From UHGV virus genome UHGV-0277313: 64,000 bases of DNA. One strand, written 5' to 3'. The translations under genes and the position numbers were made by a program. The DNA is from a virus. This document shows positions 37,189 through 39,068 of this stretch, piece by piece. Position 1 is the first letter of the stretch. Every line of letters begins with the position of its first letter. The notes under the pieces are model-generated. The model ran no database searches. It was not told the origin of the DNA and saw nothing but the letters and a program-made list of their open reading frames with translations.

Positions 37189-37473
37189 ATGATGCGTCCT
37201 TTATACGACAAAATACTTGTCGAACCTCTTCAAAATAAAAGTTTCACATGTGATGGTATAGAGCTAACAGCTTCAATGAATACAGATTTGCCTGTATTTG
37301 GAAAAGTTGTTTCTGTAGGAAATGGTTTGTTATCACAAGGAACATTAATCCCGTTAACAAGTAAAGTTGGTGATGTTGTAATCTATCCGAGAGCAGCTGG
37401 AAAGATTGTTTATTCTGATGATAAACAATTAATTTTGATTCGTGAAACTGATGTATTGGGTATTGAAGAATGA
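37189..37473 (+). CDS. groES: co-chaperonin GroES (Hsp10) homolog, 94 aa
   Basis: [15 protein letters not shown]...[10 protein letters not shown]...[35 protein letters not shown] aligns along its whole length with bacterial GroES (MNIRPLHDRVIVKR...GEVLAVGNGR...VGDIVIF...ILAIVEA). GGAGA SD 6 nt upstream of ATG 37189. The caller's upstream extension to 37144 is unlikely. Confidence 0.8.
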
Positions 37474-39068
37474 ATTTAGGTAAAAAGCTGTCATTTGGCG
37501 AAGAAGCTAGAAAACAATTAATTGCTGGTCTTAACGAATTAGCAAATGCTGTGAAAGTGACTTTAGGTCCTAAAGGCCGTACTGTTGTTATTGAAAAAGA
37601 TTTAGGGCCTCATGTAACAAAAGATGGCGTATCAGTTGCTCGTTCTATTAGATTTAGTGATCGTGAAAAGAATTTAGGTGCAACATTAATCCGAGAAGCT
37701 TCTGAAAAGGCTGCAGCTGATGCTGGTGATGGAACAACGAGTTGTACTATCTTGACGCAAGCAATTGTTAATGATGGTCATAAATTTGTTTCAGGTGATA
37801 ATAATCCAAATAATATAAAACGTGGTATTGATAAAGCGGTTGATTTTGTTGTTGATTATTTAAAAAGTATAGCAACACCTGTTGATAATTTGGATAGCAT
37901 TGAAAATATTGCTTTGGTATCATCTAATGGTGATACAGAAATTAGTAGTTTATTAAAACAAGCTGTTAAAGAAGTAGGCAAAGATGGTTCAATAGTATTG
38001 ACGCATTCTAAAACAGTTGAATCAGGTATTGATGTTACTAAAGGCATGCGTTTAGAAAAAGGTTTTCTATCTAAAGCGTTTATTAATGATACAGCTAATG
38101 CTTGTTGTGAGCTTGATAATGTGAAACTTTTGTTGGTTGATAGAAAAATTAATTCAATCAATTATATTATTAAATTATTATCTTATTGCAATACAAACAA
38201 ATTTCCGTTAATGATTGTTTGTGACGATGTATCTGACAGTGTTTTGCAGATGTTAATCGCAAATAAAGCACGTGGAACACAAATTTTATGTGTTAAGAAT
38301 CCTTTTGTCGGAAGTAGAAAGGAAGAGGTGTTAGAAGATTTAGCCTTAATGTCAGGGTCAACACCAATTATTGAAAGTCAAGGTCGTTTATTAGAAACAA
38401 TATCTGAAGCTGATTTAGGTGTTTTAGCACATGTTCGTTCAGATAAAGTTTCAACTATTGTACGTGGTGTTGATAGTCAAGCAGATGCGATTAAAGCAGC
38501 ATGTACTGAGATGCAACATACTATTGAATTATCTGATGATTTACATCTTAATGATATTTTGAAAAGTAGAATTGCAGCAATGTCGTCAGGTGTAGCAACA
38601 ATCAAGATCGGAAGCTCTTCTGAAATTGCAGCACAGGAAAAAATGGACCGTGCAGACGATGCATTGTGTGCTGTTAGAGCGGCTATGTCAGAAGGCATGT
38701 TGCCAGGTGGTGGCACTGCATTGTTAAGGGCGAGCGTTAAGCTGAAAGAGTTGCATTTCGAAAATGAAGAGGTTAATTTAGGTGTTTCGATTGTTCGTAA
38801 AGCTTTGCGTGCACCAATAACGCAATTGTTAAAGAATGCCGGTTTAGAAGTTGAGGATGTGATTTCCGAAATTCTAAAGAAGAAAGATATCAATTATGGA
38901 TTTAATGCATACACAGAGACCTTTATGAATTTAATGGAATCTGGGATTGTAGATCCAACAAAAGTTGTTAGGTGTGCGTTACAAGATGCTGCAGCTGTAG
39001 CAGGTTTAATTTTAACAACAGATTGTTTGATTACCAATGAATTTGATTTAAGTGAAATTACTGGTTGA
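37470..39068 (+). CDS. groEL: chaperonin GroEL (Hsp60) homolog, 532 aa, lacking the C-terminal GGM tail
   Basis: [56 protein letters not shown]...[19 protein letters not shown] parallels Gro[60 protein letters not shown]...AGDGTTTATVLAQAII. ATGA overlap with groES suggests an operon. Confidence 0.85.

Follow-up and report, generated by a model that had tools for sequence, protein, structure and literature searches.

Our analyses show that the window, a stretch of 64,000 nucleotides (nt) from the virus genome UHGV-0277313, carries an intact, selected and coupled pair of chaperonin genes, groES and groEL, among the virion genes of a jumbo phage. The source is an uncultured phage with a genome of ~313 kb that carries T4-type head and baseplate genes, and the pair is a real, long-conserved, divergent and deep-branching addition to the phage GroES-GroEL pairs that are already known. 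As far as can be judged from sequence, the two products would form a chaperonin that is expressed late, depends on its GroES and serves to fold proteins of the virion, with the gp23-type capsid protein as the most plausible client; this is the best reading and one that we regard as probable. The general picture of phage chaperonins, known since 2013-2017, is unchanged; the pair adds to it a lineage of ~313-kb phages that has retained its own folding machine within the virion gene block over a long divergence.

The groES and groEL genes

The co-chaperonin gene groES (37189..37473, plus strand) encodes a Cpn10 protein of 94 amino acids (aa), and groEL (37470..39068, plus strand) a group I chaperonin (Cpn60) of 532 aa, exactly the coordinates and lengths given in an earlier reading of the window from its letters (hereafter the sequence-only reading). 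That reading had taken both products for true, full-length homologs and not for analogs of the T4 protein gp31, and matches in Pfam, PHROG and the PDB bear it out; it had also named the profiles Cpn60_TCP1 and Cpn10 as a check, and both proteins score above the Pfam cut-offs. GroES reaches 58.7 bits against Pfam Cpn10 (cut-off 21.1; profile positions 2-92 of 93), belongs to the PHROG GroES family phrog_3188, is matched by solved GroES chains at E = 1e-10 to 1e-12 and is 38% identical to Escherichia coli GroES; Pfam and PHROG scans of GroES, considered with regard to a gp31-type family, gave only Cpn10/GroES. GroEL reaches 209.6 bits against Cpn60_TCP1 (cut-off 34.3; profile positions 1-487 of 490) and 456 bits against phrog_5725, passes the NCBIfam GroEL subfamily model NF009487 (525 bits vs a cut-off of 352), is matched by solved GroEL structures at E = 1e-120 to 1e-126 over residues 5-523 and is 41% identical to E. 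coli GroEL. The best PDB match is a reconstructed ancestral chaperonin of the FCB group, probably an effect of its consensus-like sequence. To judge by their sequences, the pair is a divergent member of both the GroEL and the GroES families.

The catalytic machinery of GroEL is complete. The residues that bind ATP and Mg and those of catalysis (T30-P33, K51-G53, D87-T91, D398, G414-G416 and D495) are all kept with the exception of T91S, in which the hydroxyl is retained. Among the twelve members of the clade to which this GroEL belongs (see below), T30-P33, K51, D52, G53, D87-T90, S151, D398, G414, G416 and D495 are identical throughout, and G415 is kept in 11/12, with Ala in one. As a result of T91S the nucleotide-binding motif reads GDGTTS, and not GDGTTT as the sequence-only reading had it; GDGTTT is the form of 9/12 clade members. 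The absence of C-terminal GGM repeats had been noted correctly: the tail is short and acidic, and only seven residues (DLSEITG) follow the equivalent of E. coli position 525, where the bacterial median is 19, and ends of the GGM/MM type occur in 105 of the 107 most similar bacterial GroELs, the set against which residue conservation was judged throughout.

In GroES, the mobile loop expected from the earlier reading is present and is one residue longer than that of E. coli. Its contact tripeptide reads G-I-E-L, with Glu at the centre; the corresponding tripeptide is I/V/M-E-L/M in all seven members of the near sub-clade, and LIL or IVL in two deep members. The roof hairpin is also retained. We place the start of groES at the ATG at 37189, which is preceded at a distance of 6 nt by a Shine-Dalgarno-like GGAGA (37178..37182, plus strand, read from the sequence), because the alternative, longer start (TTG at 37144) falls inside a terminator hairpin and the GroES proteins of relatives start with MMRPL, MLKPL or MKPL.

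The stop codon of groES and the start codon of groEL overlap in an ATGA (37470..37473, plus strand), also read from the sequence, which implies translational coupling. The two genes likewise overlap or abut in seven related loci (L026, L011, L009, L005, L031, L032 and L033), and are separated by 24 nt in L007. Upstream of the pair stands an intrinsic terminator (37122..37163, plus strand; GACCCGTCAAATT-loop-AATTTGACGGGTT, then CTTTATTTAC), whose strength had been pointed out from sequence: its hairpin (37122-37153) has a 13-bp stem, in which five pairs are G-C, and a 6-nt loop followed by CTTTATTT, and the intergenic fold upstream of groES amounts to -22.1 kcal/mol. Four of five relatives (L026, L011, L005 and L009) have a hairpin and T-run at the equivalent place, each with a stem of another sequence, and L007 has none.

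The 3' end of the hairpin overlaps GTTCTTTA (37151..37158, plus strand), which has the form GTTCTTWA, a motif that we take as a candidate promoter element of the phage. In the block of plus-strand genes this motif occurs eight times on the plus strand (14295, 19277, 22321, 26710, 37151, 39109, 48305 and 50792), in every case in intergenic DNA and 29-122 nt ahead of a start codon, and two minus-strand copies (12169 and 62288) precede minus-strand genes. The genes so preceded include groES (37151), the gp25-like gene (39109), the capsid gene (26710) and two large tail-region genes (48305 and 50792), among others. The copy before groES is kept in L005 and L026 (GTTCTATA in L011) and that before the gp25-like gene in L007, L009, L011 and L026. 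The motif is unlike the T4 late promoter TATAAATA. A Sigma-70-type promoter before groES was considered and rejected, since the only candidates were 9-of-12 matches that lie across the terminator, and shuffled sequence gave matches just as good. No CIRCE heat-shock operator was found with up to three mismatches allowed, and an Rfam scan of positions 36000-40000 returned nothing meaningful.

Descent and genomic setting of the pair

Long residence of the pair in the phage, together with a phage-like, AT-rich composition, had been proposed in the sequence-only reading, and both are supported by ameliorated composition, conserved synteny, low ratios of nonsynonymous to synonymous substitution (dN/dS) and a monophyletic clade. 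The GC content is 0.337 in groES and 0.348 in groEL, and their GC content at third codon positions (GC3), 0.179 and 0.193, lies close to that of the window (0.221 +/- 0.049); the codon usage of groES correlates with that of the remaining window at 0.78, and that of groEL at 0.88.

A search of 5.8 billion proteins recovered a small group of GroELs of 532-537 aa at 53-100% identity, followed by a jump to bacterial GroELs at 43-44%. A GroEL identical to the window copy was found on contigs of up to 313 kb, and IMG/VR holds a genome of 313,762 bp whose GroEL is 93% identical to it. The loci of eight relatives were fetched from separate assemblies; seven are distinct from the phage of the window itself, and GroEL identity in these seven runs from 93% down to 53%. 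In all eight the same order was observed: an open reading frame (ORF) of 146-160 aa, groES, groEL, 0-2 small ORFs, a gp25-like and a gp6-like gene. In the four for which more upstream sequence was fetched (L005, L007, L009 and L011), ORFs of 256-257 aa and 570-760 aa precede this block. Counting the window, groES and groEL are adjacent and in the same direction in nine genomes.

In a neighbour-joining tree (Kimura distances, 100 bootstraps), the GroELs of this group form a 12-member clade with 100% bootstrap, on a long stem and outside the tight bacterial cluster. The outgroup, EL, sits on a very long branch, and the deep branching order, including the apparent placement of the clade near Vibrio BX-1/YC, is not to be trusted. 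Phylogeny had been suggested as a check for host DNA, and the separate clade, together with a bacterial identity of at most 44%, speaks against such an origin. In the same tree, where the window clade stands alone, the GroEL of Bacteroides phage DAC16 falls with Prevotella/Hallella and those of two Vibrio phages with E. coli, placements that suggest a more recent capture by these phages.

Selection has kept both genes under constraint. The dN/dS of groEL is 0.039 in comparison with L026 (pN 0.046, pS 0.60, the proportions of differing nonsynonymous and synonymous sites) and 0.062 with L011, and that of groES ~0.16 (with L011 and L009). The low ratios and a pS of 0.60 therefore indicate constrained genes in a lineage old enough for synonymous sites to be near saturation, which holds even between its closest genomes. 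No signal of the host could be obtained from GroEL, every bacterial match being 42-44% identical, and a genome scan gave nothing but phage contigs binned in error and a pair of distant GroELs. Two such contigs, L027 (CALBJM010000301.1, 175 kb) and L028 (CALAFU010000007.1), both with a GroEL 93% identical to that of the window, lie in metagenome-assembled genomes (MAGs) labelled Erysipelotrichaceae and Candidatus Melainabacteria; because they hold the same phage locus at 93% identity, these MAG contigs (175 kb and 9.8 kb) are likely binning errors in public genome sets and not host loci.

The description of the genome as T4-like holds in part. The window encodes members of the families Gp23 (102 bits), Portal_T4 (65 bits) and GPW_gp25 (35.7 bits) and a gp6/Baseplate_J-like protein; a Peptidase_S77 match (21.2 bits) stays under the cut-off of 27. 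Yet this is a jumbo phage of ~313 kb in which most window proteins have no family (PHROG) match, and close overall kinship to the T4-group phages was not found despite the T4-type core genes. The Gp23-family major capsid protein (504 aa; gene 26832-28346, plus strand) is 24% identical to those of T4-group Klebsiella phages, its best identity in a cultured phage being 42% (Xanthomonas phage phiXF1). A DNA-level search of 50,697 phage records gave nothing beyond matches of ~60 bases to bacterial-type groL, so that there is no close cultured relative. Family scans recognised no sheath or tube gene among the window proteins.

The position of the operon between head and baseplate modules, as originally described, is firm on the downstream side, where groEL is followed by a gp25-like wedge gene of the GPW_gp25 family (39140-39538) and then by a gp6/J-like baseplate gene (39538-42714). 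On the upstream side, though, ~5 kb without family assignment separate the head genes from groES, made up of ORFs of 191, 224, 257, 656 and 160 aa that are conserved in relatives; those of 257, 656 and 160 aa had no match in Pfam, PHROG or PDB-profile searches.

Proposed function and alternative explanations

We infer the distinctive features of the pair from comparison with the bacterial set. At the ring-ring contact GroEL carries R452T (R in 107/107 bacteria) and A109G (A in 106/107). Elsewhere Y203A, R197K and V263I replace residues present in 107/107 bacterial sequences, and E257S and D361L residues present in 106/107; V264A occurs at a position where 96 of the bacterial sequences have V and the remaining 11 have I/L, and D83A, E255S and D359L are further changes. 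Among the apical residues that bind substrate and GroES, F204, L237 and L259 are kept and Y199F, L234I and V263I are conservative, whereas Y203A and V264A are not. Of the inter-ring positions, K105 and E435 are unchanged, and the near sub-clade has T, A or N in place of R452. The stretch 461-464 aligns as E/E/D in three MAFFT runs (124 sequences) and in the comparison with the bacterial set, and as V/D/V in a 12-sequence alignment, the alignments differing by a one-residue indel, so that R452 and A109 are the only firm inter-ring changes. The Glu-containing GroES loop occurs in the sub-clade in which residues 203 and 264 are mostly changed, and the canonical LIL/IVL where Y203 is kept; co-variation between loop and apical domain was considered on this ground, and although the pattern fits, it amounts to approximately one evolutionary event and was not counted as evidence.

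On the reading that we favour, the terminator would close the preceding transcription unit and the operon would be transcribed together with the virion genes, a co-transcription suggested by that terminator and by the GTTCTTTA motif that groES shares with structural genes. GroEL would form one or more heptameric rings that take up a phage protein in its non-native state; ATP together with the GroES of the phage would then close the chamber, and the client would fold within. The most plausible client is the 504-aa major capsid protein. In T4, the folding of gp23 requires GroEL and a phage-supplied lid (gp31), and the capsid client is favoured because the window protein is of the Gp23 family and T4 gp23 has this dependence. 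A role in folding a gp23-like capsid protein had been put forward in the sequence-only reading; it is reasonable given the 102-bit match to Pfam Gp23, the link between chaperonin and capsid being one that we infer. The machine would moreover be a specialised one, with a cavity wall made less acidic and more hydrophobic by D359L, D361L and E255S, with hardly any of the C-terminal tails that in E. coli occupy the cavity floor, and with changed GroES-contact residues and an I-E-L loop. The near-absence of tails and the less acidic wall would suit a large client.

Several observations weigh against this reading. GroEL misses the cut-off of the equivalog model TIGR02348 (519.3 bits vs 582.1), which makes it divergent and not an equivalog by the NCBI criterion, and GroES falls under every NCBIfam GroES cut-off (best 61.5 bits vs 96). 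GTTCTTWA is not over-represented across the window (16 copies vs 10.4 expected), and its putative promoter role is drawn from position alone. Y203A and V264A could lower the binding of substrate or of GroES. As regards the capsid protein as client, the operon lies ~9 kb downstream of the capsid gene and immediately before the baseplate genes; the GroEL gene of Vibrio phage phiKT1024 stands between those for tail sheath and tail tube; and the chaperonins of phages EL, OBP and AR9 were tested with endolysin as substrate (PMC9598537).

Among the alternatives, the one that survives best is a general supply of proteostasis, in which the chaperonin would fold many jumbo-phage proteins (tail, baseplate, enzymes, endolysin) independently of the level and alleles of host GroEL, host shut-off being probable. 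GroEL does occur in very different phage groups and neighbourhoods (beside the DNA polymerase gene in Flavobacterium phage immuto and Cellulophaga phage phi38:1, between sheath and tube in phiKT1024), the characterised phage chaperonins act on endolysin, and the window codes for very large proteins of unknown fold (1058, 1849 and 1262 aa). However, wall, tail and GroES interface are altered at positions near-invariant in bacteria, which points to specialisation, and the fixed place inside the structural block in 8/8 relatives points to virion morphogenesis. We therefore consider a general supply rather unlikely, though to be taken seriously.

A second alternative holds that the two proteins act separately, the phage GroES redirecting host GroEL as T4 gp31 does and the phage GroEL preventing aggregation without a lid, as does EL gp146. 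The precedent of gp31 as a phage lid on host GroEL (PMC5649160, PMC6318259), the independence of the EL, OBP and AR9 chaperonins from any co-chaperonin, and the excess of GroES-only viral contigs over GroEL contigs in viromes (PMC5649160) would all accord with it. The ATGA overlap and the adjacency of the genes in 9/9 genomes tell against it, as do the scores of the window GroEL, 407 bits with its bacterial counterpart and a mere 113 bits with EL gp146; the pattern of loop and apical residues would point the same way, weakly, and is left out of account for the reason given above. Since the genes are coupled, separate action is very improbable. Finally, host or other bacterial DNA brought in by mis-assembly or a very recent capture would fit the bacterial-type gene order, the full-length genes and the phage copies in MAG bins labelled Erysipelotrichaceae and Melainabacteria, but host contamination is excluded by independent assemblies from different samples with the same phage genes on both sides, by GC3 and codon usage that fit the window, by the lack of any bacterial GroEL above 44% identity among 5.8 billion proteins, and by the fully supported clade on its long stem.

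If the pair acts as a GroES-dependent chaperonin, as we favour, its ring structure may also be unusual. In bacterial GroEL, R452 pairs with E461 across the ring-ring interface; an engineered single-ring GroEL was altered at R452, E461, S463 and V464, and weakened lid binding is what lets it cycle; and mitochondrial Hsp60, isolated as a single ring, is without the K105-D435 and R452-E461 salt bridges (PMC5575113). With R452 replaced by T, A or N in the near sub-clade, the R452-E461 bridge cannot form there. The loss of R452, a more acidic 460-464 loop, Glu in the GroES contact peptide, small residues at 203 and 264 and the missing chamber-floor tails lead us to suggest, very tentatively, that the clade may possess a GroES-dependent single ring, or rings paired weakly or transiently, as in mitochondrial Hsp60-Hsp10, with a chamber enlarged, less acidic and adapted to a gp23-type capsid protein of ~55 kDa. 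We hold this to be doubtful; if true, it would be the first natural case in a bacterial virus of a lid-dependent single-ring chaperonin.

Whatever the number of rings, the clade keeps the full ATPase machinery and a coupled lid, yet departs from the bacterial pattern in ring contact, lid interface, wall and tail, at sites that are all but fixed in bacteria. Because these changes stand beside an intact ATPase and lid, the clade constitutes a natural experiment on which features of GroEL are negotiable and on how a chamber is tuned to a viral client.

Neighbouring genes and known chaperonin systems

Several other features of the window were observed. The capsid gene (26832-28346) is a strong outlier in composition, with a GC content of 0.473 and a GC3 of 0.398 vs a window GC of 0.316 and mean GC3 of 0.221 (sd 0.049); in codon usage it correlates with the remaining window at 0.49. 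The capsid gene of L009, whose product is 82% identical in amino acids to that of the window, shows the same skew (0.445 vs 0.298), so that the skew is a trait of the lineage rather than the mark of a recent transfer. Among cultured phages, the nearest capsid proteins are those of Xanthomonas phiXF1 and Pseudomonas QdP_Psa3 (42%), whose hosts are rich in GC. Around the capsid gene lie three large paralogs (24925-26592, 28435-30264 and 30306-32153, plus strand; 555, 609 and 615 aa), also found in relatives, which match Pfam DUF7487 and PHROG 3339/559 (labelled homing or HNH endonuclease) and are preceded by Sigma-70-like boxes (TTGACA ... TAnAAT, or extended -10 TGTGATACAAT), not by GTTCTTWA.

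Three very large ORFs had no Pfam or PHROG match: 42716-48265 (plus strand, 1849 aa), 50832-54620 (plus strand, 1262 aa) and 58576-62247 (minus strand, 1223 aa); the counterpart of the first in L005 matches the glycine-rich ALK_LTK_GRD domain. A DnaB-like helicase is seemingly split into two minus-strand ORFs ~100 nt apart (2536-3411 and 3519-4475), the upstream one covering positions 153-358 of phrog_19 and the downstream one positions 360-587, and it adjoins a primase gene (1574-2536) and a second helicase gene (4515-6479).

A complete pair of chaperonin and co-chaperonin in a T4-like genome had been thought rare in the sequence-only reading; published viromes and annotated cultured phages show that such pairs are not rare. 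Marine et al. (2017, ISME J) described viral operons of both orders, GroES>GroEL and GroEL>GroES, in aquatic viromes: of 337 viral contigs with GroEL, 133 also had a gene for a co-chaperonin, in the order GroES>GroEL on 63, and 23% of viral GroES had polar residues in the loop tripeptide (PMC5649160). Their GroES>GroEL operons resemble that of the window in gene order, which is the bacterial one, in being distinct from cellular chaperonins and in the non-canonical contact residues of the mobile loop. The window clade differs in its source, other metagenomes and a phage of ~313 kb whose head and baseplate genes are of T4 type, and its operon, unlike many of the SERC virome contigs, stands in a structural block with no small heat-shock gene upstream (PMC5649160).

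Among 50,697 phage records, tblastn found GroEL in 284, some of which are really bacterial contigs. Since tblastn with the 94-aa GroES proved insensitive (12 records), it was replaced by a hidden Markov model (HMM) built from 11 GroES and run on the ORFs of fetched loci; five phages positive with this model were in its training set, and for these positivity follows by construction. Pairs are annotated in GenBank for the Flavobacterium phages immuto (vB_FspM_immuto) and elemo, for phi38:1 and for a spring-water podovirus. In Bacteroides phage DAC16 (L003, MT074137.1) we observed a GroES-like gene (5730-5993, 87 aa) and a GroEL gene (6007-7629, 540 aa), both labelled "hypothetical" in GenBank. 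A further bacterial-type GroES-GroEL pair was seen on a 60-kb contig in an archaeal DPANN bin (L030, CAYQOK010000002.1, Woesearchaeota MAG), with a GroEL 38% identical to that of the window and a GroES scoring 59.5 bits against the GroES HMM.

The pairs of immuto, phi38:1, elemo and DAC16 are adjacent like that of the window, and those of immuto and DAC16 share its order GroES>GroEL, in contrast to elemo (GroEL>GroES). The GroELs of the cultured-phage pairs are just 33-43% identical to that of the window, and the pairs of immuto and phi38:1 lie among replication genes whereas that of the window lies among structural ones. The DAC16 GroES is without the roof hairpin that the window GroES has, and the GroELs of DAC16 and immuto retain Y203, V264 and K452.

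Compared with E. coli GroEL/GroES (PDB 1AON etc.), the pair has the same domain order, length up to residue 525, nucleotide site and bicistronic order, and differs in the absence of the GGM tail and of CIRCE, in a GroES loop with I-E-L instead of I-V-L, and in GroEL at R452T, A109G, Y203A, V264A, R197K, D83A, E257S, E255S, D359L and D361L. The phage chaperonins that have been studied biochemically, those of EL, OBP and AR9, are all lid-independent (PMC9598537) and very distant from GroEL, and no biochemically characterised phage GroES-GroEL pair was apparent in the literature searched. EL gp146, OBP gp246 and AR9 gp228 are likewise Cpn60 members encoded by jumbo phages, but the window GroEL shares only ~25% identity with EL gp146 (113 bits to 6tmt vs 407 bits to E. 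coli GroEL), and chaperonins of the EL type work without a lid and have no GroES gene nearby (checked for EL), whereas the window has a coupled GroES. With T4 gp31 and RB49 CocO, the system has in common a phage-supplied lid for a GroEL-type chamber and a capsid protein of the gp23 family; gp31, however, is a structural analog without a roof hairpin that uses host GroEL, whereas the lid encoded in the window is a true Cpn10 accompanied by a GroEL of the phage's own.

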